The notes under the pieces are model-generated. The model worked only from the letters and a program-made list of their open reading frames with translations, ran no database searches and was not told the origin of the DNA. From Candidatus Undinarchaeota archaeon (GTDB taxonomy: Archaea; Undinarchaeota; Undinarchaeia; Undinarchaeales; Naiadarchaeaceae): DNA of 42,367 nucleotides. Positions 2,472 through 41,646 of this stretch are shown here, in pieces. Position 1 is the stretch's first letter. The number at the start of each line of letters is the position of its first letter. The translations under genes were made by a program, and so were the position numbers. The stretch lies in NCBI GenBank assembly GCA_964401205.1, contig CAYNXO010000001.1, forward strand, positions 1 to 42,367, in the 5' to 3' direction.

Positions 2472-4310
2472 ATGATAGAACCAGTAAGAATGACGAAAAT
2501 TCGCATTGTAGGGACAAAACGCGTTTTAGAAGGGGCTATCAAGGTCCTGCATTCAGAGGCTGTTGTACATATAGAGGATTTCAGGCCAGGCAAGTACAAT
2601 GTTGATTATGCTTATTTTGACATAGGAAACCCTGCAAAAAGCGCGTCAAAATATTCAGAGCTTCTTGTAAGGTTAAGGGCGCTGATTGCAAGTTTGAAGA
2701 TTGAGAGGCAGGATTTTTCGCTTGCGAAAGTTCCGGACGGGGCTGAAAAAATGCTTGCGAAAATTGAGATGGATTCGGCAAAGATTGTGGAAAAATCAAA
2801 AATTTTTGAGGATGAACAAAAGGAGCTTGAAAAGGCAGAGGAGATGGTTGGTTTCCTTTCTGCACTTAAATTAAAGCCAGATGTTTTTTCGCCGCTTGAG
2901 AATCTGGCGGTTTTCAGCGGCTATTGTGAAGGAGATTTTGAAAATGAATTAAGCGGAATAACAAAAAAATACAAACTCACGAAAAAAGTAAGGAAAAAAG
3001 ATGTTGCTTTTGCCCTTTTTGTTGAGAAAGAATCTGCTGAAAAAATAAAGGGAATTCTTGAATCATACAAGTATCGGGGAGTTCAGGTTCCTGCAAAAAT
3101 AAAATACAAAAGCCTTGAGGAGCTTGCGGAAAGGAAGAAAGAGCTTGAACAAAGCGAGAAAAAAACAGCGGAAAAGCTAGGGCAATTAAAGAAAAAGAAG
3201 GGGCAGTTCCTTGTAAGCTACGAGAATTACCTCAAGAGGGAGAACGAAAAGGCAGAGGCTCCTTTGCGCTTCGGGGAAACTGCAAACCTGTTCGTTGTTG
3301 AGGGCTATGCGCCTGTCAAAAAATATGAAACTCTGAAGCAGAAATTGGCAGATGGCTTTGGAAAGAAAATATATGTGGAACGGTCTGAAAAAGAGGTGGA
3401 ATTTGCTCCTACGCAGCTGCAAAACCCTAGCATAATTGGCTCCTTTGAGTTCTTCTTAAATCTGTATTCACTGCCTTTCTACAGGGAGCTTGACCCCACT
3501 TTTCTCATATTCATAACTTTCCCGCTGTTTTTTGGATTTATGCTGGGCGATGTCGGCTATGGAATCACAACAGCGATTATTTTCCTGATTGTAAAATACT
3601 CAACAAAATCAAGTTCGCTTAAGGGGCTGATGAATGCGATGCTGCTTGCTTCAATGGCATCAATCGCCTTTGGTTTCCTTTTCGGGGAGTTTTTTGGCGG
3701 GCCTTACTTTGGGTTAAATCCAATAATAAACAGGGAGCATGACATAACACTGATGATCATGATTACTCTGCTTGTTGGAATAATTCACTTGAACATTGGG
3801 TATTTGTTTGGTTTTGTTAATGCAAAGAGAATGCACGGCATAAAGCACGCGCTGGCAGAAAAGGGGAGCTGGATTGTTGTTGAAATTGGGATTATTCTGC
3901 TTCTTTTCAAAATGCTCAATGTTTTTTACACTACTCTGCCATACCAGGTATACCTTGGGTTTGCTTTTTTGGGTGCGGGAGCTGCAATAATGATAGCAAG
4001 CGGAAGGGCTATCGAGGTTATTGAATTGGCGGGTGTTATGAGCAACCTCCTTTCCTACACAAGATTGTTCGCAATTGGGCTGGCTTCAGTTGCTCTCGCT
4101 ATGATAGTAAATGAATTCGCAACTGCCTTTATAGAAACGGGTGGAATAATGATACTTCCGGCAATACTTATACTAGTGATGGGACACGTGTTGAATATAG
4201 CAATAGGAATAATCAGCGGATTTTTGCAATCCTTGAGGCTTCACTATGTGGAGTTCTTTACAAAGTTCTACAAAGGTGAGGGAAAAAGATATAACCCCTT
4301 TGGAGGTTAA
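2472..4310 (+). CDS. atpI: A-type ATP synthase subunit I (membrane a-subunit)
   Basis: 612 aa with a soluble coiled-coil N-terminal half and a polytopic C-terminal half containing the conserved LSYxRL-like motif (LLSYTRLFAIGLAS). Operon position fits. Confidence 0.85.
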   Translation: MIEPVRMTKIRIVGTKRVLEGAIKVLHSEAVVHIEDFRPGKYNVDYAYFDIGNPAKSASKYSELLVRLRALIASLKIERQDFSLAKVPDGAEKMLAKIEMDSAKIVEKSKIFEDEQKELEKAEEMVGFLSALKLKPDVFSPLENLAVFSGYCEGDFENELSGITKKYKLTKKVRKKDVAFALFVEKESAEKIKGILESYKYRGVQVPAKIKYKSLEELAERKKELEQSEKKTAEKLGQLKKKKGQFLVSYENYLKRENEKAEAPLRFGETANLFVVEGYAPVKKYETLKQKLADGFGKKIYVERSEKEVEFAPTQLQNPSIIGSFEFFLNLYSLPFYRELDPTFLIFITFPLFFGFMLGDVGYGITTAIIFLIVKYSTKSSSLKGLMNAMLLASMASIAFGFLFGEFFGGPYFGLNPIINREHDITLMIMITLLVGIIHLNIGYLFGFVNAKRMHGIKHALAEKGSWIVVEIGIILLLFKMLNVFYTTLPYQVYLGFAFLGAGAAIMIASGRAIEVIELAGVMSNLLSYTRLFAIGLASVALAMIVNEFATAFIETGGIMILPAILILVMGHVLNIAIGIISGFLQSLRLHYVEFFTKFYKGEGKRYNPFGG

Positions 4311-6244: not shown

Positions 6245-6260
6245 GTGGATTTGGATGAAA

Positions 6261-6354
6261 ATACGCAAAGCGGTTAAATAAAAAAAGCTTTGCTATCTCG
6301 AACAAAAGTGAGAGATGCTCGTAGAGCATTTTCATTCGCTCACGCTCATGAAAA
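6261..6354 (+). repeat. Family-2 structured element, copy D (atpC-atpF intercistronic, overlaps atpF start codon)
   Basis: Hairpin 1 pairs GCAAAGC (6265-6271) with GCTTTGC (6287-6293). Hairpin 2 pairs TTTTCAT (6329-6335) with ATGAAAA (6348-6354), and the ATG is the atpF start. The element recurs at 33596-33657 with a compensatory T-A to C-G change. Confidence 0.7.
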
Positions 6355-10871: not shown

Positions 10872-13800
10872 TTATTTAAATGTGCCTAATGTCTGCTGCT
10901 TTTCCCTGCCGAAAATTGAAACTATGCTTTTTTCAATAAATTCTATCTGCTGCCTTAAGTAAGGGGAAATGTTGAATTTCGTTGCCATTTCTTTTGTCGC
11001 GTTGAGATATTTTATAATAGTCCCCTGATGGACAGTAAGAACTATGTTTCCGCCGCACCTCAAACAAACACCGCTAAGCGGCGGCCTTCGGTATTTTGCA
11101 TTGCATTTTGTGCAGCGGACTTTTTGCCTTGAGAAGGTTCTTAAGTTTCCTTTCATGTCAGGGATAAAGTGCGTATTAATAATCCGCTCAGCAACGTCCC
11201 TTGCATCAACAGCCCTGATTTTCTCTGCAAGAGCAAGCTGCTTATCTAGTTTGTCTAGCATCTCACCTTCGGTGTAAGTGTTTGAGATTACGCCGTTGTT
11301 TATGTCAGAAACTTCGTGTGTGTAAGCCCATCCGTTAAAGGGGTCTTCTGCCTCAACTATGTCCTCAAATGTCTTGATTTCTATTTTTGAGGGGTCTGAA
11401 CCCTGTTCAGTAAGCTCGTAAAATTCAAGGGGGTATTCAGAAGAAATGTCAACATCATAAACTTCGTCATCAATTTCAAGCGGGTTTAATATTGTTGTAA
11501 TAACAAGCGGCGCATCCATTCTTCCGCCTCTTTTCTTAGGGATGAAGCATTTTGAGAAATTAATGAATGTGTCAAGCAGCAGTATTATTGAATCTTCGTC
11601 CCCGTCGCAGTCGCGCCGCTTTGCTGCGTGGAAAGCAGGGTTTGCAAAGCAGACTTTTGCGTCTGTAAATCCTAAAATTCTTCCGACCATACCGGTTGAA
11701 GTGTGGGGTGCGAGAGCAACTATTGAAGTTCCTACTAAATCATGTTTGTTCTTTGCATTGTAGTATCTTGGCAGGCCGTAATACTTCTCAAGTAAATCAT
11801 CCATAAAGTGGGTTGTGCGCAAAAGATAGTTTGAACAGGACTCCTCTTCGCCCCAGTCGCTAATTATTATGTCTTGGGGCTTTAATTCAAGAACTTGATT
11901 TTCGTTTTCAATTGGCTTTCCATTAATGTCGTTTGTATATCCGAGCTCTTTTATTTTTGAAATAGGAACTTTAATCTCGGCAGGAGTAAAATGCGAAATT
12001 GGGGCGTCTGTTGCGTCGAACCTGACCGTCCCATCCTTGAATGCATAAATATTGTGGCTTGCCCTGAGAATGCCTTTTTCAATTGGCTCAGGAACTTTGT
12101 CCTTTGAAGTCATGCCAAGGACGCCGACAAGTTTTTTAGGAAGGGATATGCCGATTTTTGCAGAAGCTGCATCGAGCATTTCCTTGAATTTTAATTCAAC
12201 CCTTTCAAAAGATTTTGTTTCTACATTGCAATGGGGGCATGTTGGAGAATTTATTTTTCTTTTGCACACAGGGCAGAAAGTCAGGAGGGTTGTTCTTGTA
12301 CCGCAGGCCGGGCAACAGGGAAATATTGTGTTCTTGCCGCATGCTGAGCAGAAAAAAGTTGAAACTTCAGGAGTTATTATGGGGCTGACATTTGCTGCTT
12401 TTATCAAATCCCTTACTCTTCCCTTTATAACGCCGGTGGGAAAAAGGGAGTGCGGCGGCGGAACCATTTTTCTTGGCTTTGCCTTTTCAGGCCTCCCCAT
12501 TCTTGCGCCCACATAAGTCGGGGCGCGATTTTTAATTTTAACCGGGGCGATTCTGTTTATTGCGTCCATTATGTTTGCCACTTTTGCGGATTTTAATTCA
12601 GAGAGAATTTCCTCGGGCCTTGCACTGTCAAGTGCTGTTGAAAAAAGAAGTGCTTTTGCATGATTGCTGTCAATTTTAATCTGCCCATTGCTGAGAGAGT
12701 GGAAAACGCAGAGCAGCTCAAGTATGTCTTTCAAATCTTTGTCAAATGGGATATCCATCCCTGGTTTGTATTTTAGTTTGCCAAGAATCTGGATTAACTT
12801 AACAAGCTGGATTATTGAAATGTTGTTCCAGAAGAATGTATATTGAGGGTGGAGTGGAATGTTAAGCTCTGTTGAAATTTTTGCTGCTGTTTCAAAATCA
12901 GGCACAACAAACGGCTTTGAAAGGTATTTTGAGTATGCAGAATGCTTTTTGCTGTCGTTCCCAATTTCTTTTTTTGCTTCCTGCGCCCACCACTCTTCAA
13001 CATAAGAGCTGGGGAAAAGTTTGTGGTTGTTTTCAATAAAGTCGCCGGCTGATATCAGCAAATCGCCAAGAGTTATTATTTTTTCAAGATTGTTTTTGTT
13101 TTCCTTTGCTTCCTCTAATGTGTTTATTTGTTTTAATTCGCCATTTTTCAAAACAACAGTCGGGCCGTTAATGCTGTCGCAAACAGTAACAATTCCTGCT
13201 TTCCCGGGGAATTCAAGCCGTATCTGGGTGCCGATTGCAATAAACCCGTCAAGCAGAACCATTGTTGCAGGATTTACTGCGACAGCAGAGTATCCTGTTG
13301 TTCTTGTCCTTCCGTATCGAAGAGTGAATCCGCCTTTTTTGGAAGGATGGGAAAAAACAGGCCTTCCTGCAGGAATTTCCTGCATGTATTTTTCATTACC
13401 AATATTTTCAACTGTTTTTTCCTCTGTAATGTCTTCAATAAATGCGTCTGCTTCTTTTGTTACATCAACAAGGCCTGCAACATCATTAACATCTTCTTCT
13501 GCAATATTCTGAACCCAGTTGTATTTTGTGTCAGCCGCGCTTTCAACTATCTCCTCCAACCGCTCCTGCGCATAAGGAATTTCCTTTGCCGCTTTCTTCA
13601 CAAGAAGCCCCTCAAGCCAGGACCATTTCAAATTGTATTTTTGCTCAAGGGGCTTCAGCTTCTTTACAAGCTTGGATGCTTTTTGCGCAATGCCTTCTGC
13701 AATAACAAGGCACATTCCCCCCCTTACTCTGTTTGTTTCAACTCTCCCTAAATTCCTGTAAGTGACAACTTCAAACTCCTCTGTTGGCTCTCCGTCAATG

Positions 13801-14435
13801 CAGACAGGAACATTTCTTACAATTGTTTCTATTTCTTCCTGTGTCGGCATGTATTGCAGGTGGACATTTCTTTTATACCAGAGTATCTCTTCTGCGCACC
13901 TGCCGATTTCGGCAGGGGTTGGCTGATATTTGCCAAGTTTAAGGTAGCGCCTTACATAGTCTGCAACAATAATTGAAAGCGCCTCTGCAGTACCGCCTGC
14001 TGCCCTTATCGGACCGGCATAATAAACAGAAAGGTATTCGCTTCCATCGGGATTTTTCTTAATTTTTACTTTTGCAATTCCTTCAATAGGCGCGCTTACT
14101 GCCCCTTGTGTAAGGTATGCAAGGCCTGCGCGGATTGCTTTTTCGCCTGCGATTTCACGGTTGTTATTTGTCTCTTTCAGCCCGTTTTCTATAACCTGTT
14201 CTGCTAGCTTGAATGCAACTTCTTCCTCTGTTTTGTATTGTTTTTGCAGGTTCCTTATTACAGGAGCAATTCCAGGGAGCTCAACAAGACCTTCTACTTT
14301 GTCTGCGATATCTTTCGCAATATAGGGCTCCGGAATTGTCGCAAAATCAAATCCTTTTGCCCGTGCTTGCTTGGCTATCTCAAACTCCTTGAAAACATTT
14401 TCCTCCATTAATTTATAGTATTCTTTTGTGTTCAT
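10872..14435 (-). CDS. polC: DNA polymerase II (PolD) large subunit DP2
   Basis: About 1187 aa with several Cys4 zinc clusters (CSACGK..CPACG, CPVC..CPHC, CTKC..CLRCGG), typical of DP2. The start is placed at MNTKEYYKLMEE (ATG 14435). The listed upstream 33 codons run through an intergenic repeat. Confidence 0.95.
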   Translation of the reverse strand: MNTKEYYKLMEENVFKEFEIAKQARAKGFDFATIPEPYIAKDIADKVEGLVELPGIAPVIRNLQKQYKTEEEVAFKLAEQVIENGLKETNNNREIAGEKAIRAGLAYLTQGAVSAPIEGIAKVKIKKNPDGSEYLSVYYAGPIRAAGGTAEALSIIVADYVRRYLKLGKYQPTPAEIGRCAEEILWYKRNVHLQYMPTQEEIETIVRNVPVCIDGEPTEEFEVVTYRNLGRVETNRVRGGMCLVIAEGIAQKASKLVKKLKPLEQKYNLKWSWLEGLLVKKAAKEIPYAQERLEEIVESAADTKYNWVQNIAEEDVNDVAGLVDVTKEADAFIEDITEEKTVENIGNEKYMQEIPAGRPVFSHPSKKGGFTLRYGRTRTTGYSAVAVNPATMVLLDGFIAIGTQIRLEFPGKAGIVTVCDSINGPTVVLKNGELKQINTLEEAKENKNNLEKIITLGDLLISAGDFIENNHKLFPSSYVEEWWAQEAKKEIGNDSKKHSAYSKYLSKPFVVPDFETAAKISTELNIPLHPQYTFFWNNISIIQLVKLIQILGKLKYKPGMDIPFDKDLKDILELLCVFHSLSNGQIKIDSNHAKALLFSTALDSARPEEILSELKSAKVANIMDAINRIAPVKIKNRAPTYVGARMGRPEKAKPRKMVPPPHSLFPTGVIKGRVRDLIKAANVSPIITPEVSTFFCSACGKNTIFPCCPACGTRTTLLTFCPVCKRKINSPTCPHCNVETKSFERVELKFKEMLDAASAKIGISLPKKLVGVLGMTSKDKVPEPIEKGILRASHNIYAFKDGTVRFDATDAPISHFTPAEIKVPISKIKELGYTNDINGKPIENENQVLELKPQDIIISDWGEEESCSNYLLRTTHFMDDLLEKYYGLPRYYNAKNKHDLVGTSIVALAPHTSTGMVGRILGFTDAKVCFANPAFHAAKRRDCDGDEDSIILLLDTFINFSKCFIPKKRGGRMDAPLVITTILNPLEIDDEVYDVDISSEYPLEFYELTEQGSDPSKIEIKTFEDIVEAEDPFNGWAYTHEVSDINNGVISNTYTEGEMLDKLDKQLALAEKIRAVDARDVAERIINTHFIPDMKGNLRTFSRQKVRCTKCNAKYRRPPLSGVCLRCGGNIVLTVHQGTIIKYLNATKEMATKFNISPYLRQQIEFIEKSIVSIFGREKQQTLGTFK

Positions 14436-14445
14436 TTTATGTTTA

Positions 14446-14619
14446 GGCGCATCACCACAAAGCGAGGGCATCATCCAGCTTGCAACAACTGGAGGGCGCA
14501 ACAACGCCTGCACAGCCCTCGCTTTGTGCCGCACTTGCTCTTTACTATAGGCACAATAGCCACTTTTACCAGGTTTTTTCGCCCTCTCGTAGCTTAGACT
14601 AGCTTAGTGCGAAAAAAAC
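14446..14619 (-). repeat. Family-1 structured element, copy A (DP1-DP2 intercistronic; carries a nested hairpin insertion)
   Basis: It shares GGCGCATCAC...CACTTGCT...CCAGGTTTTTT-stem-AAAAAA with 33226-33326 and the reverse complement of 40340-40439. The stem TTTTTTCGC (14574-14582) / GCGAAAAAA (14609-14617) covaries with TTTTTTGCC/GGCAAAAAA in the other copies. An extra perfect 14-bp stem pairs 14456-14469 with 14515-14528. Confidence 0.75.
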
Positions 14620-14621
14620 TG

Positions 14622-16088
14622 TTAAAATGCTAAAATCTGCACCTGCCTTGTTTTTAGATTTATGATTGGCATTCTGCCTGGGGTCGGCTCGTGGCCAAGG
14701 AATTTCTGGAAATCTGTGATGTCTTGCCAGGTTCCTGAATTTAGTAAAGTGGTCCCTCTGTAAGCCAGAACTCCGTTTGAATGGACGTGGCCTGTGTGAA
14801 AAATATCTATTCCTTCAGGGATAGCAAGCGGGTCTGAAGAGGTTTCTCCGGTTGTGACAATTCCTGATTCATAGGGGGGGCTTAAATGCCTTTTTTTCAA
14901 AAGGGCCAGCATGACTTTTTCAGGATGTTTGTAGCCATCTTTCAGGCTTGAAACATTTGGGACAATTGAATCAATAGAAGTCCCGTGATACAGCAGAACA
15001 TTCAGGCTAACATCATTTTCAAACGGTTTTATTTTTACAACACCCGGGGAGGAAATTGAAACTAAATTAGGGAGTTCATAAAGCCCGGGTGCAACGTCTT
15101 TGTCAATTGGCGGCTGTGGCTGAGCAATCCTTACATAATCGTGGTTGCCGGGGCAGATAATTATTTTAATATTTTCAGGTATTTTTGCAAAGCTTTTTGC
15201 AATTTCCCCGTATTGTTTGTAAATGTCGGTTATTTCCAGCTCTTTTTCCTGACCCGGATATATGCCAACCCCGTCAACTAAATCTCCTGCAACGAAAATA
15301 TATTTTAAATTCTCAAGGAATTTCTGCTGGTCTTCCCATAAAACAATGTCGCTTGATTTCCCGCGGATAAAATCAATCATGGAATTATACTTGTCTTCAA
15401 GGAATTTTTTGCTCCCTAAATGTATGTCACTGAGGAATGCTGCATAAATTGTTTCTTTTGTTTTTTTTTCAACACGGTTCACCGGCAAATCCGGGATTGT
15501 TATGTCATCCACAAACAAAACCCCTTTGCTTGCTGAGCCTGAAACTCCTATAACCTCATCATGCAGTATTTCATCTGCCTGAGCCATGAGCTCGCGTTTT
15601 GTGATGATTGCCTTTGCCGTGCCAGACATGTCCTCAAGCTCAAGAATTACATTTCCTTTTGGAGTCTTCTGCTTGGTTGAAACAATCCCAATAACGCTTA
15701 TTTTTTCGTTTGCTATTTTTTTTATGTTTGCGATTGACTGCAGGTTGGTGAGGCGCGGCTGGAGGTATTTTTTAAATTGGTTAAGTCTGCCAAGAAAATA
15801 TTTTGAAATGTCGTTTATATCGCCGATTGGCGGCATGTGCGTATGGTTTGCAACAATTTCTAAATCAATCAAACCAGTAATATTTTTTGGGGGGCGGGTT
15901 TTTTCTTTAACAAAATGTTCCGGGAGTATAATTAACTCCTTGTTTTGCTTTAGTTCTGAAATTAAATTATCGCACACCTCTACTGGATTTTTGCTTTCAA
16001 GAAGTAATTGCAGGGCTTCTTTTGAAATCTGAAGTTCGCTTGAAATTATTTTGCCAAGAACCTTGGCCTTTAGACTTTGGCTTTGCAT
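14622..16088 (-). CDS. polB: DNA polymerase II (PolD) small subunit DP1
   Basis: 488 aa with an OB-fold region and calcineurin-like phosphoesterase motifs (GDLVDG, GNHD, GHVH). Confidence 0.9.
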   Translation of the reverse strand: MQSQSLKAKVLGKIISSELQISKEALQLLLESKNPVEVCDNLISELKQNKELIILPEHFVKEKTRPPKNITGLIDLEIVANHTHMPPIGDINDISKYFLGRLNQFKKYLQPRLTNLQSIANIKKIANEKISVIGIVSTKQKTPKGNVILELEDMSGTAKAIITKRELMAQADEILHDEVIGVSGSASKGVLFVDDITIPDLPVNRVEKKTKETIYAAFLSDIHLGSKKFLEDKYNSMIDFIRGKSSDIVLWEDQQKFLENLKYIFVAGDLVDGVGIYPGQEKELEITDIYKQYGEIAKSFAKIPENIKIIICPGNHDYVRIAQPQPPIDKDVAPGLYELPNLVSISSPGVVKIKPFENDVSLNVLLYHGTSIDSIVPNVSSLKDGYKHPEKVMLALLKKRHLSPPYESGIVTTGETSSDPLAIPEGIDIFHTGHVHSNGVLAYRGTTLLNSGTWQDITDFQKFLGHEPTPGRMPIINLKTRQVQILAF

Positions 16089-16133
16089 TTTTTTGTTGGG
16101 GAATTAATCCACCACTAATTGTTTTTTGCTGGG

Positions 16134-17327
16134 CTATGCCAGTTCACCAGATAGTATTTCTTTGCTTTTTTCAAGAACAACCCCTGAGATATCAAGGTTT
16201 ATTGTCCGCGTTCTCCCGTATCGGCCGCGTGAGACTAGTGTCGCCCCGATTAGGCCGAGCATTTCAAGCTCAGATATTAAATCTGAGACGCGCCTTTGCG
16301 TCAATGGCTCGAGCTTGAATTTCCTGCTGAGTTTTGTATATACTTCGTAAATTTCACCAGTAGAAATAATTTCCGTATTCTGGTCTTTCAAGTAAATTAT
16401 GCTTGAAAGCACTAGTTGAGACTGCCTTGGCTGTGTTTTAATGATTTCGACAACTCGGTCAATGTCTAGTTTCTTTTGTGCAATATCAACATGGTTTGCC
16501 TGGACTTTTTCATCTCCCTGGCGCTCTGCAATCTCAACAGCCACCCTCAGCAAGTCAAGTGCACGCCTTGCGTCCCCGTGTTCCTGCGCTGCAAGCGCTG
16601 CGCATTTTTCAATTACGCCTTCCCCTAGGATTTCTGGCCTTAGTGCAATTGCTGCCCTTTTTGATAGTATTTCTTTTAGCTGGACTGCATTATATGGTGG
16701 GAAAACAAGCTCCTCTTCTGACAAAGAGGATTTTATCCTAGGATCAAGACTGCTTGTAAAAGCCAAATCGTTTGTAATACCGAGTATGCTTACACGCGTG
16801 TTTTTCAGCTCTGTGTTTATCCTTGTCAAGTCATAAAGGATTGTTGGGTCTGATAAGGAATCTATTTCATCAAGTATTATTATACAGATGCTGTTTGCAT
16901 CTGCAAGGGCTAAAAGGAATTTTTTGTAAACTTCCTCTGTTGGAAGGCCTGTGGCTGGCACTTGCTTGCCTAATTGCAAAAGGAAATTCGCCAAAAGCCG
17001 GTAAGGTGTGTTTATTTTATTTATTTTGCAATTCAGGTAAATTGTTTTTACATTAACGCCGCGCTCTATTGCTTTCTTCCCAAGTTCCTGGCAAACATAC
17101 TTACTCACGAGTGTCTTGCCTGTCCCGGTTTTGCCATATACAAAAACGTTTGAGGGCTTCTCCCCCCTTAAGGAATTTACAAGAATTGACGCTAATTGTC
17201 TTATTTGTTCCTCTCTGTGCGGGACTGTTTCTGGTGTGTAGGTTTCTTGCAATGCTTCTTTAGCAAAAAAATGTGGCTGCCTGCCTAAGAAAGAGTCAAA
17301 CAAATCATTCAGTGCTTTTTGCGCCAT
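16134..17327 (-). CDS. cdc6: Orc1/Cdc6 replication initiator
   Basis: AAA+ Walker A (YGKTGTGKT), Walker B (IIILDEID) and a C-terminal winged helix. It lies adjacent to an ORB-containing spacer. Confidence 0.95.
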   Translation of the reverse strand: MAQKALNDLFDSFLGRQPHFFAKEALQETYTPETVPHREEQIRQLASILVNSLRGEKPSNVFVYGKTGTGKTLVSKYVCQELGKKAIERGVNVKTIYLNCKINKINTPYRLLANFLLQLGKQVPATGLPTEEVYKKFLLALADANSICIIILDEIDSLSDPTILYDLTRINTELKNTRVSILGITNDLAFTSSLDPRIKSSLSEEELVFPPYNAVQLKEILSKRAAIALRPEILGEGVIEKCAALAAQEHGDARRALDLLRVAVEIAERQGDEKVQANHVDIAQKKLDIDRVVEIIKTQPRQSQLVLSSIIYLKDQNTEIISTGEIYEVYTKLSRKFKLEPLTQRRVSDLISELEMLGLIGATLVSRGRYGRTRTINLDISGVVLEKSKEILSGELA

Positions 17328-31192: not shown

Positions 31193-31282
31193 GCGGCGAT
31201 AGTCTAGCCTGGTAGGACAAAAGCTTCCCAAACCTAAAAACGGAAACAGCTTTAGGCCCGAGTTCAAATCTCGGTCGCCGCA
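31193..31282 (+). tRNA. tRNA-Gly(CCC) with 17-nt intron at the canonical 37/38 position
   Basis: Manual cloverleaf: acceptor GCGGCGA/TCGCCGC with discriminator A; D arm GTCT/GGAC; anticodon stem AAAGC/GCTTT; loop TTCCCA|A with anticodon at 31227-31229; intron at about 31231-31247; T arm CCGAG-TTCAAAT-CTCGG. C2-G71 and G3-C70 fit Gly identity. Confidence 0.85.
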
Positions 31283-33163: not shown

Positions 33164-33192
33164 AAACACCATCTCAAGCCGCTTTCTTTCTT

Positions 33193-33208
33193 CTGTGTGG
33201 TATAGCCC
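33193..33208. repeat. 16-nt left arm of duplicated cassette, copy 1
   Basis: CTGTGTGGTATAGCCC is identical to 33705-33720. Confidence 0.7.
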
Positions 33209-33225
33209 TCATCCATTTATAGGAA

Positions 33226-33326
33226 GGCGCATCACAGCACTTGCTTTGTACTTTCAGCGCACTAGCCTCTTTTCCCAGGTTTTTTGCCCCCTAAAATAGC
33301 CACGACTTGCTTAGTGGCAAAAAAGC
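33226..33326 (-). repeat. Family-1 structured element, copy B
   Basis: Roughly 80% identical by eye to the reverse complement of 40340-40439. The stem pairs TTTTTTGCC (33280-33288) with GGCAAAAAA (33316-33324). Confidence 0.75.
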
Positions 33327-33372
33327 TGTGAGACCTAAACTTTCTATACTCGAGTATATATTTCCCAAAAAC
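33327..33372 (-). promoter_or_regulatory. Right arm of duplicated cassette, copy 1: 12-bp palindrome ATACTCGAGTAT plus TATA-like box
   Basis: TGTGAGACCTAAACTTTCTATACTCGAGTATATATTTCCCAAAAAC; the palindrome is at 33346-33357. On the minus strand, AAATATATA lies about 25-30 nt before the 5' end of element B. Confidence 0.5.
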
Positions 33373-33439: not shown

Positions 33440-33562
33440 ATGCCTGTGAAAACCCGCAAGAAGAAATGGAAGAAGCGCGGAAAAATGCGCTGGAAGTGGG
33501 AAAAGAAGCGCATGCGAAGGCGAATGAAAATCCAGAAGCGCTTGAGAATGAAAGCTATCTAG
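33440..33562 (+). CDS. rpl41e: Ribosomal protein eL41 (L41e), unlisted 40-aa ORF
   Basis: My own translation gives MPVKTRKKKWKKRGKMRWKWEKKRMRRRMKIQKRLRMKAI. The KKRGKMRWKW.KKR.RR core matches my recollection of archaeal L41e. Confidence 0.8.
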   Translation: MPVKTRKKKWKKRGKMRWKWEKKRMRRRMKIQKRLRMKAI

Positions 33563-33595
33563 TCATGCTGCTCGGTTTTCTAGATTTTTCTAAAG

Positions 33596-33657
33596 ATATG
33601 CAAAGCTGTTAAATAAATGATGCTTTGCTATTTTCACTCGCTTACGCTCGTGAAAAA
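33596..33657 (+). repeat. Family-2 structured element, copy E (downstream of eL41)
   Basis: GCAAAGC (33600-33606) pairs with GCTTTGC (33622-33628). TTTTCAC (33631-33637) pairs with GTGAAAA (33650-33656). It lacks the 33-nt insert present in copy D. Confidence 0.7.
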
Positions 33658-33704
33658 TGCCTTAAAATCGATATGCAGAGCCATATCAAGGAGCCGATTT
33701 TAAG

Positions 33705-33720
33705 CTGTGTGGTATAGCCC
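33705..33720. repeat. 16-nt left arm of duplicated cassette, copy 2
   Basis: CTGTGTGGTATAGCCC is identical to 33193-33208. Confidence 0.7.
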
Positions 33721-33762
33721 GACAGCCAACTTTCCCGACTCCCTGCTTTAGAATGAAAAAAT
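33721..33762 (-). repeat. Degenerate / internally deleted family-1 element
   Basis: AGCCAACTTTCCCGA aligns to AGCCTCTTTTCCCAG of copy B. CTGCTTTAGAATGAAAAAATTG aligns to CTTGCTTAGTGGCAAAAAAGCTG. The stem-loop core is missing. Confidence 0.5.
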
Positions 33763-33808
33763 TGTGAGAGATAGAATTTCTATACTTGAGTATATATTTT
33801 CAAAAATC
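33763..33808 (-). promoter_or_regulatory. Right arm of duplicated cassette, copy 2 (ATACTTGAGTAT + TATA-like box)
   Basis: TGTGAGAGATAGAATTTCTATACTTGAGTATATATTTTCAAAAATC aligns along its whole length with 33327-33372. Confidence 0.5.
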
Positions 33809-34331
33809 ACTTTTTCAGGGCATAATAAATTTCCCGGCCCTTTCTTGTCTGCTCCACAACATTGTATTTTACCAATTCACTGAGGCGCATCGCAGCATAC
33901 TGCCTTGAAATTCTCATTTCCTTTGCGATTTCAGCTGCCTGCATTTTTCTCCTGCCGACATAATTTATTATTTTCTTGTCAACATCAAGCATTTCAAGCT
34001 CCCTGTCCACTTCCTCGCGCATTCTCTCAATCTGCGTTTTCTTCTCCTCAAGGTATTTTTTGAAATCTGCAAAATCAGTTTTTGTCGCCTGCTGCTCCAT
34101 TATCTTATGGTGGTCCTCCCTTAAACCCCTGAACCCGCTCAAAAGTGCAGAATGCATCTCCTCAATATCGCGCTGGACATTTGTCATCTGCTTGCTGAAG
34201 CTTATTATTGGATCTTCAGCAATTTTTTCCACAGAAACATATTTCTTTCTCTCCTTCTTCTTAACAATAGAGTGCTGCATAGCGGTTTTGGGAGCTTTCT
34301 TTTTCTTGAAAAAAATGTCTAATAGGCCCAT
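33807..34331 (-). CDS. Coiled-coil protein with C-terminal ArsR-like wHTH and MGLLDIFFKK N-terminus
   Basis: C-terminal IINYVGRRKMQAAEIAKEMRISRQYAAMRLSELVKYNVVEQTRKGREIYYAL. The second Met (34331) is preferred because MGLLDIF parallels the MGILDIF start of 21895..22329. The listed start is 34346. Confidence 0.65.
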   Translation of the reverse strand: MGLLDIFFKKKKAPKTAMQHSIVKKKERKKYVSVEKIAEDPIISFSKQMTNVQRDIEEMHSALLSGFRGLREDHHKIMEQQATKTDFADFKKYLEEKKTQIERMREEVDRELEMLDVDKKIINYVGRRKMQAAEIAKEMRISRQYAAMRLSELVKYNVVEQTRKGREIYYALKK

Positions 34332-34357: not shown

Positions 34358-34454
34358 TGTCAACTATATATATTTTATGTCAATTGACGAGTTGACAAAT
34401 CCTTGACAATAGAGTGCTGCATAGCGGTTTTTAGTCGTTTACAAGTCTTGACAG
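34358..34454. promoter_or_regulatory. Array of TGTCAA/TTGACA half-sites around the promoter of the wHTH gene
   Basis: TGTCAAC (34358-34364), TGTCAATTGACGAGTTGACAA (34378-34398), CTTGACAA (34402-34409) and CTTGACAG (34447-34454). An ATATATAT box lies between them. Confidence 0.5.
34406..34431. repeat. 26-nt exact duplicate of the wHTH gene's 5' coding segment
   Basis: ACAATAGAGTGCTGCATAGCGGTTTT is identical to 34264-34289, which lies in coding sequence (KTAMQHSIV). A related TGCATAGCGATTTT lies at about 34737. Confidence 0.8.
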
Positions 34455-37487: not shown

Positions 37488-38048
37488 TTAGGCCTTGATA
37501 ATATTCCTTATTGCCTTTATTCTAGCCACGCCCCATTCAAACTCTTCTTCTTTTCCTAATTTTCTTGCGAGTTTTGAAGCCTCGCTGAGATATTCAAAGG
37601 CCAACTTATAGTTTTTTCTTTCAAATTCGAGCGCACCCCGCGCATATTTTTTGTAAAATATGGCATTTGTATAAGTCTTATCAATTTTCAGCGCTTCATC
37701 AAAAAGTTTTATCGCCTCGCTCTTATCGCCAATATCAAACTCAAGGTCACCTAACTTTGTAAAAGCGGCTGCTGTTTTTTTGCTCCTTTTGATTGCTTCC
37801 TCAAAACACTTTTTTACGTCTCCTTCCTTTCCCATTGAGCGGAGCGTAATCCCCTTACAATACCATGCCTCTGGAAGCTCATCTTCCAGCCCAAGAATTT
37901 CGTTCCACAATTTAAGTGCAGTTGCATAATCGCCTTTCTTATGCGCCTTAAAAGCTTTCTCGCTCAATAAGCCAATTTCCCACTCAAGTTTCCCCTCAAT
38001 TCCAGGGGATATATCAAATTTTGTGTTCCTGTCCGAAACTCGTGCCAT
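37488..38048 (-). CDS. TPR-repeat protein
   Basis: Repeated W..G..L......A...F..A pattern (AWYCKGITL, AIKLFDEALKID). Confidence 0.7.
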   Translation of the reverse strand: MARVSDRNTKFDISPGIEGKLEWEIGLLSEKAFKAHKKGDYATALKLWNEILGLEDELPEAWYCKGITLRSMGKEGDVKKCFEEAIKRSKKTAAAFTKLGDLEFDIGDKSEAIKLFDEALKIDKTYTNAIFYKKYARGALEFERKNYKLAFEYLSEASKLARKLGKEEEFEWGVARIKAIRNIIKA

Positions 38049-38117
38049 AATCTTAAAAGTGTTCCCCGTTCTTTATAAACTATCTGCCCGTGCACCTTTT
38101 CCCAACATTTGGATTAG

Positions 38118-38840
38118 TTAATGCGGTTTTTTCAGACCCTCTACTGCTCTTTTGAAAATATCTTCTTTCTTGGTTTGCCTTGCAATCTTTGCAGTTTCAC
38201 TAAACAGCTCTTTTGCCTTTGCTCTTAATTCTTCCCCCTTCCTTTTGCTTACTCTTTTTTCACTTAGAATTGCCAGAGTCTCTGCTTTTTTCACCTTTGC
38301 CAACAAGTCATCTTCTTTGTCTATTATTATTTCCAAAACCTTGAGTGCATTTTCATACTGTTTTAGTTTTGCAAGTGCATCAGCCTTGCTGTGCAATACT
38401 TGTGTTTCAAAAAAGAACTCCTTTTCCTTTGATAAACGGGCCAGCTCCCGGTCAAAATATGCAACAGCCTGCTTGTATTTTCCAACTTTGGCACAAGATT
38501 CCCCCTTTTTGTATGCGTTTTTAGGAGCATTAATTATTTCAGGGCATTTTTTCTCGCCATCATCAAAACACTTAAGTGCATCTTTGTATTTTTCAAGCCC
38601 TAAGAGCGCCTCTCCCTTATACCACAACAGCTGGCCGTCCAGTTTTTTTCCTAACATTTCTCTTGGATATTTGTTAAGCAGGCCTGAAAGGATTTTTTCT
38701 GCAGCTTCATAATCTCCGTTATTAATTGCCTGCACAGCCTCGTCTATGGGCTCCAGTATTGCTTTTCTGAGCTCCCCATACCGTTTTATTTTGCCCCACC
38801 TTTCTTTCAATTCAGCAAGGTCAAGATTAGTTTCTGTCAT
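38118..38840 (-). CDS. TPR-repeat protein
   Basis: Several 34-aa TPR-like units (YEAAEKIL, YKDALKCFD, YKQAVAYFD, YENALKVLE). Confidence 0.7.
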   Translation of the reverse strand: MTETNLDLAELKERWGKIKRYGELRKAILEPIDEAVQAINNGDYEAAEKILSGLLNKYPREMLGKKLDGQLLWYKGEALLGLEKYKDALKCFDDGEKKCPEIINAPKNAYKKGESCAKVGKYKQAVAYFDRELARLSKEKEFFFETQVLHSKADALAKLKQYENALKVLEIIIDKEDDLLAKVKKAETLAILSEKRVSKRKGEELRAKAKELFSETAKIARQTKKEDIFKRAVEGLKKPH

Positions 38841-38971: not shown

Positions 38972-40249
38972 ATGATTGACATCAATCTTTTGCGCACAAA
39001 CCCGGAAATTGCAGTTAAATCCCAGAAAAAAAGAGGTTTAGACACTTCAATAATTGGAGAAGTGCTTTCTGTTGACAAAAAATGGCGCAATCTGAAAGGT
39101 GAAATTGACAATCTAAGGGCTGAGAAAAATAAAACCGGGGAGGAAATCGGAAAATTAAAGAAACAGGGAAAGACTCCGGCTGAACTTTTAAAGAAAATCT
39201 CTGCAATTTCAGAAGAGACAAAGAAAAAAGAAGAGCCCCTTGCTCTTTTAGAGAAAGAAAGGGACAAATTACTTTTAGATATCCCGAATATTTTGCATGA
39301 AACAGTTCCAGCCGGCAAGGATGACACTGAAAGCGTTGTTGTACGAACCCATGGAAAAATCCCTAAATTCACTTTCAAGCCAAAAGACCACATTGATTTG
39401 GGCTTGGCACTTGATTTATTTGACATTGAAAGGGCTGCAAAGACATCCGGCGCGAGATTTTACTTCCTGAAAAACGAAGCAGCACTTCTTGAGCTTGCAG
39501 TAGCGCAGTACGCACTTGATTTTCTCGTGAACAAGAAAAAATTTATCCCTTTGATTGTTCCGAATTTGGTAAAAGAGCAGGTGATGTATGGAGTCGGAAT
39601 GCTGCCTCACTCAAAATCAGAAATTTTCAAAATAGAAGGGCATGACTTGTATTTAATATTAACATCAGAGCACGCAATTGGCGGCTTCCATATGGCTGAA
39701 ACATTTAATGAGAAGGATTTGCCAAAGAGGTATGCTGGATTTTCTGCGTGCTACAGGACAGAAGCAGGTGCGCACGGAAGGGATACAAAAGGAATTTTCA
39801 GAGTCCATCAGTTTAACAAGGTTGAAATGTTCATTTTCTGCAAGCCAGAGGAATCCTGGAAAGAGCACGAGATGTTAATTAAAAACGCAGAAGAGCTTGT
39901 AAAGGGCCTGGAACTCCCTTACAGGGTTACAAACATCTGCACAGGAGATATTGGAACAGTTGCTGCAAAGAAATACGATGTTGAAGCCTGGTTCCCTGGG
40001 CAGAATGCATACCGCGAAATAATCTCATGCTCAAACTGCACAGACTTCCAGGCACGCCGCCTTAATATCAGAGTCCTCAGGCCAGGAATGAAGACAGATA
40101 TCATTCACACACTTAACTCAACTGCGCTTGCTATTGGAAGGACAATAGTTGCAATTCTTGAGAACAACCAGAATAAGGACGGCTCAATAAATATTCCAAA
40201 AGCACTGCAAAAATACTGCGGATTTAAGAAAATTGAAGCAAAGAAATAG
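38972..40249 (+). CDS. serS: Seryl-tRNA synthetase
   Basis: N-terminal coiled-coil arm (MIDINLLR...) and class II motifs (FRVHQFNKVE, GTVAAKKYDVEAW, ALAIGRT). TATA TTATATAT lies about 30 nt upstream. Confidence 0.95.
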   Translation: MIDINLLRTNPEIAVKSQKKRGLDTSIIGEVLSVDKKWRNLKGEIDNLRAEKNKTGEEIGKLKKQGKTPAELLKKISAISEETKKKEEPLALLEKERDKLLLDIPNILHETVPAGKDDTESVVVRTHGKIPKFTFKPKDHIDLGLALDLFDIERAAKTSGARFYFLKNEAALLELAVAQYALDFLVNKKKFIPLIVPNLVKEQVMYGVGMLPHSKSEIFKIEGHDLYLILTSEHAIGGFHMAETFNEKDLPKRYAGFSACYRTEAGAHGRDTKGIFRVHQFNKVEMFIFCKPEESWKEHEMLIKNAEELVKGLELPYRVTNICTGDIGTVAAKKYDVEAWFPGQNAYREIISCSNCTDFQARRLNIRVLRPGMKTDIIHTLNSTALAIGRTIVAILENNQNKDGSINIPKALQKYCGFKKIEAKK

Positions 40250-40339
40250 TTTTTTTATAAAAACCGCGTTTTGGAAAACTAAATAAACTAATCTTTTCTC
40301 AATACCCGCGTTATGAATCAGCAAAACGTGCCTCTTTCA

Positions 40340-40439
40340 GCTTTTTTGCCACTACACAAATCGCAGCTACTAAGTGGGCAAAAAACCTGGGAAAAAAGGC
40401 TCGTGCGCTTACAGTGCAGAGCAAGTGTGGTGATGCGCC
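40340..40439 (+). repeat. Family-1 structured element, copy C (serS-aminotransferase intercistronic)
   Basis: GCTTTTTTGCCACT...AGTGGGCAAAAAACCTGGGAAAAAAGGCT...AGCAAGTGTGGTGATGCGCC. The stem pairs 40342-40350 with 40377-40385. The element ends 24 nt before ATG 40464. Confidence 0.75.
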
Positions 40440-40463
40440 AACTTAAAAAGAAGGGTGAAAGCA

Positions 40464-41552
40464 ATGAACGCTAACACGAAAAACGTCCCTCTTTTAATGA
40501 CCCCTGGTCCAACAGTTGTTCCAGACAGAATTTTGCAGGCCCTTTCAAGGCCGTTAATCCACCACAGGGAAAAAGAATTCCTTGAAATGTCAAAAGTATG
40601 CATTGGCAGGCTAAAGCAGCTTTTCAAGACAGAAAACGATCCCTTTATAATAACCTCCTCTGGAACAGGGGCAATGGAAGCAGCTGTTTCAAACGTAATT
40701 AACCCTGGCGACAAAGTGCTTTCAATTGTCAACGGAATTTTTTCAGAGCGGCTGAGCAACATTGCAACTGCCTTTGGCGCGCAGGTACGAACGCTGAGCG
40801 TTCCCTGGGGCCAGGCAGTTGATATCCAGAAATTCAAAGACCTTTTCAAAAGCACGAACTACAAATTAGTCACAGTTGTCCATAATGAGACTTCAACAGG
40901 CGCGAGAAATGACATTGCTCCTATCGGAAAAATTGTGAAAGACACAAACACCCTGCTTGCCTGTGACGTAATTTCAAGCCTTGGCGGAGATGACATAAGA
41001 ACAGATGAATGGGGCGTTGATTTCTGCATAGCAGGAAGCCAGAAATGCCTTATGCTCCCCCCCGGGCTCTCATTTATAACTGTTTCAGAAAAGGCATGGA
41101 AAGAGGTTGACAAGAAACAGGGCGGCCGCTTTTACTTTAATCTGAAAAAATACAAGGAAAAGTATCCTGACAACCCATGGACAACTGCAATTAACCTTGT
41201 TTTTGGCCTGAATGAAAGCCTTGAAATGATTTTTGAAGAGGGGCCTGAAAACTGCATAAAAAGGCACGCGGAAGTTGCAGCCCACTGCAGAAAGGAAATT
41301 AAAAAGCTCGGGTTTGAGCTTTTTGTAAAGCCTGAAAGCTCCTGTTCGCAAACCCTGACTTCAATTGCTGCGGGTTCAAGGGATGTTGAAAAATTGCGCT
41401 CAATTGTCAAGCAGAAATACAACATACAGATGGCAGGCGGGCAAAAAGAAATGAAAGGAAAGATATTCAGAATCGGCCACATGGGTTCAATCGGGAAAAA
41501 AGAAGTGGACATGACAATTGATGCTATTTCAAAGGCGCTGAAGGAGCTGTAA
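40464..41552 (+). CDS. Class V pyridoxal-phosphate aminotransferase (serine-glyoxylate / phosphoserine aminotransferase-like)
   Basis: LLMTPGPT N-terminus and the SQK PLP-lysine motif (AGSQKCLMLPPGLSF). The GTG at 40455 is an alternative start. Confidence 0.85.
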   Translation: MNANTKNVPLLMTPGPTVVPDRILQALSRPLIHHREKEFLEMSKVCIGRLKQLFKTENDPFIITSSGTGAMEAAVSNVINPGDKVLSIVNGIFSERLSNIATAFGAQVRTLSVPWGQAVDIQKFKDLFKSTNYKLVTVVHNETSTGARNDIAPIGKIVKDTNTLLACDVISSLGGDDIRTDEWGVDFCIAGSQKCLMLPPGLSFITVSEKAWKEVDKKQGGRFYFNLKKYKEKYPDNPWTTAINLVFGLNESLEMIFEEGPENCIKRHAEVAAHCRKEIKKLGFELFVKPESSCSQTLTSIAAGSRDVEKLRSIVKQKYNIQMAGGQKEMKGKIFRIGHMGSIGKKEVDMTIDAISKALKEL

Positions 41553-41563
41553 AATAAATTAAG

Positions 41564-41624
41564 GCTAGTAGCTTGTAGCTAGTGGCTCGTAGCGCTACAA
41601 GCGACCAGCGACGAGCGACAAGCT
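41564..41624. repeat. Inverted array of heptamer repeats (GCTNGTR x4 / ACNAGCG x4)
   Basis: GCTAGTA GCTTGTA GCTAGTG GCTCGTA is followed by ACAAGCG ACCAGCG ACGAGCG ACAAGCT. The whole can fold into a long imperfect hairpin. Confidence 0.7.
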
Positions 41625-41646
41625 GAACCAATTTGACAGGATAAAA

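Follow-up and report, generated by a model that had tools for sequence, protein, structure and literature searches.

The repeat that lies between serS and a class V aminotransferase gene in an Undinarchaeota genome, referred to here as copy C, probably (at about 0.6) represents a small, lineage-restricted family of hairpin-centred, non-coding insertion elements of this DPANN archaeon (Undinarchaeota/Naiadarchaeales). Comparison with orthologous loci suggests that copy C is an insertion scar in the aminotransferase leader, and not a serine-responsive or serS-linking regulator. The stretch of DNA analysed, 42,367 nt in length (the window), also carries cdc6/orc1, PolD DP1 and DP2, an A-type ATPase operon and Hef.

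Exactly three full copies of the element (A, B and C), and no others, were detected in the 42-kb window using nhmmer and the covariance-model search that the initial annotation had proposed. By BLAST, copies B and C were 83.5% identical over 103 nt (E 9e-24), A and B 76% identical over 93 nt (E ~1e-15), and A and C 74.5% identical over 94 nt (E ~1e-13). The family is real, far beyond chance similarity, and the kinship of copy C with A and B, which had been noticed from the letters alone, was borne out (74-83% identity, E 1e-13 to 9e-24). The copies, and the parts recognized in copy C and copy A, were located as follows:

Copy A, 14621-14446, minus strand: begins at the base following the DP1 stop TAA; its end is 10 nt from the DP2 ATG.
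Insertion within copy A, 14456-14529, minus strand: palindromic, 74 nt, three-way junction, located just before GTGATGCGCC.
Copy B, 33328-33226, minus strand: directly behind a conserved TATA promoter and followed by the 3' part of an sRNA-like gene.
Copy C, 40338-40439, plus strand: core from CAG to GTGATGCGCC, scoring 125.8 bits with the covariance model.
Hairpin P1 of copy C, 40338-40389, plus strand: 5' arm CAG-C-TTTTTTGCCACT, 3' arm AGT(G)GGCAAAAAA-C-CTG.
P1 loop of copy C, 40354-40372, plus strand.
Candidate small hairpin P2 of copy C, 40399-40422, plus strand: GCTnKTGY, a 7-nt loop and GTRMAnAGC.
Conserved tail of copy C, 40423-40439, plus strand: AAGTGyrG-GTGATGCGCC.

The copies were characterized, from the 5' to the 3' end, by CAG-y-T6-SSC-ACT, a loop and GSS-A6-C-CTG, then, on the 3' side of P1, by GGnAAAAnn, a candidate 8-bp hairpin (P2) and AAGTGynG-GTGATGCGCC. 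The homology of copy C with A and B may extend ~10-20 nt beyond the core at 40338-40439. The initial annotation had quoted the sequence at 40340-40439 correctly, and had described a 12-bp stem with one bulge; this stem was recovered, with its 3' arm starting at 40373 instead of 40372. It is formed by TTTTTTGCCACT (40342-40353) and AGTGGGCAAAAAA (40373-40385), with a bulged G at 40376, and beyond a C.C mismatch CAG (40338-40340) pairs with CTG (40387-40389). The last base of GTGATGCGCC is 40439, at the distances originally given from the ATG at 40464 (24 nt) and from the GTG at 40455 (15 nt). In the window, each of the three copies has the orientation of the gene downstream of it and terminates 9-24 nt ahead of an ATG.

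P1 was paired in 96.9% of cells over four sequences, with three pairs altered on both sides, versus 36-69% in slid controls. Covariation among copies was seen as GCC/GGC versus CGC/GCG, and pairing was kept despite a divergence of ~20%. Moreover, it reached 2-3 pairs into the host flank; in copy A, a G-to-U change matches the DP1 stop codon. The conservation of P1 and its pairing into the host flank leave room for selection on an RNA or DNA hairpin, either for its own propagation or through exaptation. Covariation supports the 5' hairpin P1 (U6/A6 arms) only. In P2, every cell was paired in the three copies and one compensatory change (G:C to U:A) was observed, which is statistically weak with n = 3 sequences. 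Copies C and B had folding z-scores of -0.8 and -0.4, respectively, so that the thermodynamics alone are unremarkable for both. Copy A as a whole folded with z = -3.6, and no second copy of its 74-nt insert was found. Protein coding was rejected for the element, as the frame is open only in copy C, copy A having a stop and copy B a frameshift.

To place copy C in its genomic context, we compared the serS-aminotransferase region with related loci. The following features were distinguished:

serS, 38972-40249, plus strand: assigned by Pfam, with its stop TAG at 40247-40249.
T7 run, 40250-40256, plus strand: directly after the serS stop, and likely the end of the serS transcript.
A/T-rich, promoter-like box AAAACTAAATAAACT, 40275-40289, plus strand: aligned with the related locus L120; a putative promoter.
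Relic of the ancestral aminotransferase start, 40313-40337, plus strand: ATG AAT CAG CAA AAC GTG CCT CTT T, encoding MNQQNVPL.
Linker 3' of the element, 40440-40463, plus strand: carries a Shine-Dalgarno-like GGGTGA (40453-40458) and is missing from orthologous loci.
New start and duplicated N-terminal codons (ATGAACGCTAACACGAAAAACGTCCCTCTTT), 40464-40494, plus strand.
Class V aminotransferase, 40464-41552, plus strand: assigned by Pfam.

The two genes are co-directional, with a spacer of 214 nt. The closest homologues of the aminotransferase showed 73-79% identity, with 76-79% at loci L120, L124 and L125, and relatives keep the order serS, aminotransferase, a 325-aa gene and a 2-hydroxyacid dehydrogenase. 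The element was absent from the serS-aminotransferase spacers of L120, L124 and L125, where unrelated reverse-strand ORFs are found instead, and a conserved cis-regulatory leader of the aminotransferase or of serS was rejected on this basis. Directly 3' of the aminotransferase stop, we also observed an imperfect palindrome of ~60 nt, GGCTAGTAGCTTGTAGCTAGTGGCTCGTAGCGCTACAAGCGACCAGCGACGAGCGACAAGCTG (41563-41625, plus strand; z = -2.4).

Oligo-T runs are the archaeal transcription termination signal, and by analogy the T7 run probably acts as the serS terminator. The promoter-like box, GAAAACTAAATAAACT, is common to the window and L120 and is located ~25-30 nt upstream of the ancestral ATG (40313), a spacing typical of leaderless genes in archaea. 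The peptide read from this ATG has the same layout as the N-terminus of the aminotransferase in relatives, M-x-x-x-x-(V/P)-P-L-L-M-T-P-G-P. The alignment with L120 stops after CCTCTTT (40337), at which point L120 runs on with TAATGAC; the window counterpart of TAATGAC is found only past the element, the 24-nt linker and a second set of N-terminal codons ending in ...AAAACGTCCCTCTTT. This break in the alignment and its late continuation indicate that the element lies inside the former coding start. Copy C begins 25 nt into the leaderless aminotransferase gene, and the element, the Shine-Dalgarno sequence and the new ATG lie within former codon 9. The stretch AAAACGTSCCTCTTT is present on both sides of the insertion, and both junctions coincide with predicted RNA 5' ends. 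From the old ATG, an upstream ORF of 51 codons runs through the element to a TAA stop 8 nt past the new ATG. Because the promoter-like box and the ancestral ATG are upstream of the element, copy C would belong to the aminotransferase's own transcription unit. The initial annotation was right that copy C lies between co-directional genes and in their orientation, and its description of an inter-cistronic operon spacer was not retained.

Two other sites could be compared in their filled and empty states. The DP1-DP2 junction, occupied by copy A, measures 186 nt in the window versus 47, -4 (ATGA overlap) and 4 nt in L126, L128 and L129, respectively, all of which keep the cdc6-DP1-DP2 arrangement. 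The second site was found in a metagenome scan with a gapped P1 pattern, which gave a single match, on L144 (43.9 bits, E 3e-10). This copy consists of the hairpin only and is located between RtcB and a TPR gene, antisense to both; L144 was placed in the Naiadarchaeales by its RtcB homologues. The same site is filled in L146 (99% RtcB identity) and empty in L148 (95% RtcB identity), where RtcB TGA-TAAA-ATG TPR is read and the flanks are ~90% identical. The RtcB-TPR spacer is 4 nt in L148 versus 82 nt in L146/L144. With the aminotransferase locus, this makes three independent comparisons of filled and empty sites; together with the antisense copy and the unrelated functions of the downstream genes, they indicate that the element is an insertion-derived, lineage-restricted repeat. 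With three full copies in the window and one hairpin-only site (L146/L144), four copies are known, which leaves termini and target rules poorly defined.

The surroundings of these sites showed additional features. The cdc6/orc1-DP1-DP2 cluster (10872-17327, minus strand) adjoins the A-type ATPase operon, is syntenic in relatives and is probably a replication origin neighbourhood. The element lies near cdc6, but its identification as an origin (ORB) repeat was rejected, the copies being 26 kb apart and having no ORB-like dyad. A pair of TPR-repeat genes adjoins serS in the window (37488-38840, minus strand) and RtcB in L146 (7723-8976, plus strand); the L148 contig breaks off there within the first TPR gene, of which it shows the start alone (3591-3686, plus strand), and the pair is absent from that position in L145, L147 and L149. 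The location of this cassette is thus variable.

We searched other collections for further copies of the element. None was found in ~160 kb of other Naiadarchaeales loci. A genome-collection scan with AAAAACCTGGNAAAANNGGC, which proved too loose a pattern, gave 119 chance matches and no real ones; a first metagenome scan, using a pattern with 23 specified bases, gave 0 matches. Three viral-contig scans returned chance matches only, and there was no BLAST match to the element in plasmid and phage collections. With Rfam 15, the whole window gave only a tRNA at the gathering threshold, and the regions of copies C and B gave only noise below 16 bits at E<=10; membership in any of its families, self-cleaving ribozymes among them, was rejected accordingly. 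The tRNA gene (31193-31282, plus strand; Rfam 56.9 bits) has a 20-nt anticodon-loop intron and was missed by ARAGORN. Two other repeats were observed in the window: a 30-nt direct repeat (34260-34289 and 34402-34431; 97% identical, spaced 142 nt), present at the 5' end of and upstream of a 179-aa winged-helix-like gene, and a 49-nt repeat (6248-6296 and 33583-33631, plus strand; 80% identical), which has a GCAAAGC...GCTTTGC hairpin followed by a T-rich stretch and looks terminator-like.

The element is unclassified, and the closest known kinds are the small dispersed repeats of bacteria and archaea (MITEs such as Correia; ERIC), with MIRU-type units also close. Among prokaryotic MITEs and small dispersed repeats are Correia/NEMIS of Neisseria, ERIC, RUP and the SM1-SM4 MITEs of Sulfolobus (review PMC10969869). 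Like these, the element is short (80-180 nt), non-coding and multicopy, with a long hairpin; it is intergenic or located in leaders, would be co-transcribed with its neighbours and may give the downstream gene expression signals. Its presence also differs between related genomes, in all three filled/empty comparisons. In contrast to MITEs, the inverted repeat (P1) of full copies is confined to their 5' half, the number of copies seen is only 3-4 and a partner transposase is not known. Terminal inverted repeats are lacking in full copies, as the ends CAGyTTTTTT... and ...GTGATGCGCC are not complementary; only the hairpin-only copy of L146 has inverted-repeat arms near its ends. Flanking duplications vary, with TAA on both sides of A (the left one being the DP1 stop), 15-25 nt at C and none at B. 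A 3-bp TAA target duplication was rejected as a general rule, as L146 versus L148 is a clean insertion that does not require one. The strict definition of a MITE thus fails on terminal inverted repeats, and a target-site duplication of fixed length is inconsistent. These points count against an insertion element in general, as do the sense orientation of all window copies and the absence of a transposase or reverse transcriptase within the window.

Other classes of mobile or structured elements shared part of these traits. MIRUs consist of 40-100-bp units in tandem and have no long hairpin; as Supply et al. are said to have described them in 1997, they lie in intercistronic operon regions, in gene orientation, with short ORFs abutting the flanking stop and start. 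Similarly, a mini-ORF in copy A ends in ATGA over the DP2 start, and the upstream ORF of copy C ends just after the new ATG. Unlike MIRUs, the element has a long hairpin, and its open frames are not statistically compelling. It resembles REP/BIME (RAYT) and IS200/IS605-derived elements in being hairpin-centred, without terminal inverted repeats or target duplication, and in keeping its stem sequence while the loop diverges. REPs differ in having GC-rich stems of 20-40 nt, a GTAG head and hundreds of copies, and membership was rejected (A/U-rich U6/A6 stem, 100-180 nt, three copies in 42 kb and no Y1 transposase). IS200/605 derivatives require a pair of subterminal hairpins and, on the left flank, a fixed target of 4-5 nt; this class was rejected because the element has one conserved hairpin and its left flanks (TTTTAA, GTCTCA, CTCTTT and CATCCC) have no common motif. 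A box C/D or k-turn RNA was rejected, since a GUGAUGC C-box-like motif is present but CUGA occurs only in copy B, without conservation of its position, and a tandem G.A geometry could not be drawn. H/ACA sRNA motifs were not conserved among copies, and this class was also rejected, as was the template/variable pair of a diversity-generating retroelement, the copies being non-coding and their differences not limited to adenines.

Among the alternatives, we considered that the element is an exapted, cis-acting RNA module (P1, P2 and tail), which would bind a common factor or control mRNA stability or translation of DP2, the aminotransferase and the sRNA-like transcript. We regard this as unlikely, although it retains some weight. 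The sense orientation and the distance to the downstream ATG in 3/3 window copies are in its favour, as are the pairing of P2 in all three, the reading frames of A and C, which stay open into the start that follows, and the P1 covariation with pairing into the host flank, which fits selection on RNA structure. Against this, the hairpin-only copy of L146 is antisense to its neighbours, which argues against an obligate sense-strand RNA regulator. Moreover, orthologous sites are without the element, no functional theme links the genes downstream of the copies, and the folding of B and C is unremarkable. The open upstream ORF in copy C has a chance probability of ~0.08, so that translational coupling to this ORF is only a possibility.

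A second alternative concerns locus B, which differs from the other sites by its promoter. Two features were added here:

TATA promoter of copy B (GGGAAATATATACTCGAGTATAGAAAGTTTAGGTCTCA), 33329-33372, minus strand: duplicated at 33769-33816 and conserved twice in L120.
B', 33640-33816, minus strand: paralogous promoter and sRNA-like gene, without the full element.

The promoter duplicate of B' is located 436 nt upstream of the copy B promoter. In both B' and L120, the promoter precedes an sRNA-like unit of ~100 nt, which has a hairpin, GGGCUAUACCA...UGGUAUGGC, and the end GCAUAUYGAUUUU. At locus B, the element takes the place of the 45 nt at the 5' end of this unit, of which the 3' part is left (E 3e-4). 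The sRNA-like genes form a tandem pair in two genera (33640-33816 and 33165-33372 in the window, 3260-3395 and 3620-3767 in L120, all on the minus strand). Their TATA promoter is strongly conserved (GAAATATATACTCGAGTATAGAAA..TCTCACA), and no Rfam match was found for the unit. Between the two genes, a mini-ORF encodes an extremely basic 40-aa peptide (MPVKTRKKKWKKRGKMRWKWEKKRMRRRMKIQKRLRMKAI; window 33440-33562, plus strand; L120 ~3410-3525, minus strand), whose orientation in the window is the reverse of that in L120; it looks by eye like ribosomal protein L41e, but gave no Pfam match.

Locus B may be the source gene or one more insertion site. If it is the source, its 5' domain would have become the element, and A, C and the L146 copy would be promoterless copies made via an RNA intermediate or template switching, an origin that we hold to be distinctly unlikely. 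Copy B sits directly behind a TATA promoter that L120 conserves as a tandem duplicate. The TATA box of locus B is at -32..-25 from CAG, which puts the predicted (not mapped) start within ~2 nt of the homology start in A, C and L146. At the positional orthologue of B in L120, a mini hairpin, GGTTTTTCGAAAAACC, occupies the equivalent place, and at C the first base of the duplicated host segment is that of the leaderless ATG, presumably the 5' end of the mRNA. Like eukaryotic sRNA-derived SINEs, the family would thus have one copy with a promoter and dispersed copies beginning at its predicted transcription start; further likenesses are the variable length of the flanking duplications and the A-rich stretch that follows the conserved 3' end. 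However, homology between the element and the sRNA-like family was rejected, as an nhmmer profile (B' and the two L120 copies) matched only the 3' remnant at B and neither the element in B nor copies A or C; GGTTTTTCGAAAAACC, although among the top non-family matches to the P1 model in 205 kb, is not significant (11.8 bits, E 2.6). Unlike SINEs, the element has no internal promoter; what is constant among its copies is the 5' end, the 3' end being variable, and classical retroposition would give the reverse pattern. Nor was a reverse transcriptase seen in the window, and to our knowledge retroposed RNA copies are essentially without precedent in archaea.

The element might also be a portable transcription attenuator or insulator. 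As the palindrome has a T6-T7 run on both strands, any insertion would set an archaeal oligo-T signal between neighbours, and such a tract is indeed present between the upstream and downstream genes in 4/4 copies, regardless of orientation. This reading is very improbable, since a strong terminator between DP1 and the essential DP2 would be expected to do harm where no new promoter can be seen, and since the U-run is in the 5' arm, unlike the geometry of an intrinsic terminator, a class that was rejected for this reason.

Finally, the proposal of the initial annotation, a structured intercistronic RNA (riboswitch, attenuator or processing site) co-regulating serS and a serine-related aminotransferase, agrees with the co-directional genes and their 214-nt spacer, with a plausible role in serine metabolism (in relatives, a phosphoglycerate-type 2-hydroxyacid dehydrogenase follows the aminotransferase) and with the position of riboswitches and ribosomal-protein-type leaders just upstream of a start codon, but it is hardly credible, because the T7 run follows the serS stop, the aminotransferase promoter and ancestral ATG are upstream of the element, other copies are found ahead of DNA polymerase DP2 and inside an sRNA-like gene, no Rfam riboswitch or leader matched, and the comparison of orthologous loci, which that annotation had set beforehand as its refuting test, gave loci without the element in an unchanged gene arrangement.

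The reading that we prefer remains an insertion element. It is built on the conserved P1 (14-16 bp, with U6 and A6 arms), which in full copies is followed by an A-rich linker, the candidate small hairpin P2 and the tail GUGAUGCGCC. Copies may have landed, in a nearly neutral manner, in short, already transcribed sites: copy A between the translationally coupled DP1 and DP2, and the hairpin-only copy between RtcB and the TPR gene in a related species. On the landing of copy C, the N-terminal codons would have been duplicated, and the downstream Shine-Dalgarno sequence and ATG would now start the aminotransferase. Copy C would be transcribed from the ancestral aminotransferase promoter, within a new 5' leader of ~150 nt that includes the upstream ORF opened by the old leaderless ATG. 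Translation of the aminotransferase may thereby have changed from leaderless to Shine-Dalgarno-led, possibly coupled to the upstream ORF, and copy C may affect mRNA folding or stability. As for the hairpin, we lean towards a determinant of the element's own mobility or maintenance.

The mobile and repeated DNA of the very compact DPANN genomes is little described. In this family, insertion appears to have been tolerated precisely where two translationally coupled genes of the essential PolD operon meet, and inside the first codons of a leaderless gene, with the gene start rebuilt. Copy C would thus provide a concrete natural case of a leaderless mRNA that has acquired a leader, and it is a warning for annotation that such repeats should not be read as conserved regulators. 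It seems quite improbable that sRNA locus B seeded promoterless transcript copies in other transcription units, RNA-templated or by template switching; if true, it would amount to an archaeal counterpart of the way in which SINEs or processed pseudogenes form, and a real link to the promoter-bearing, sRNA-like locus would bear on the origin and spread of archaeal non-coding elements.
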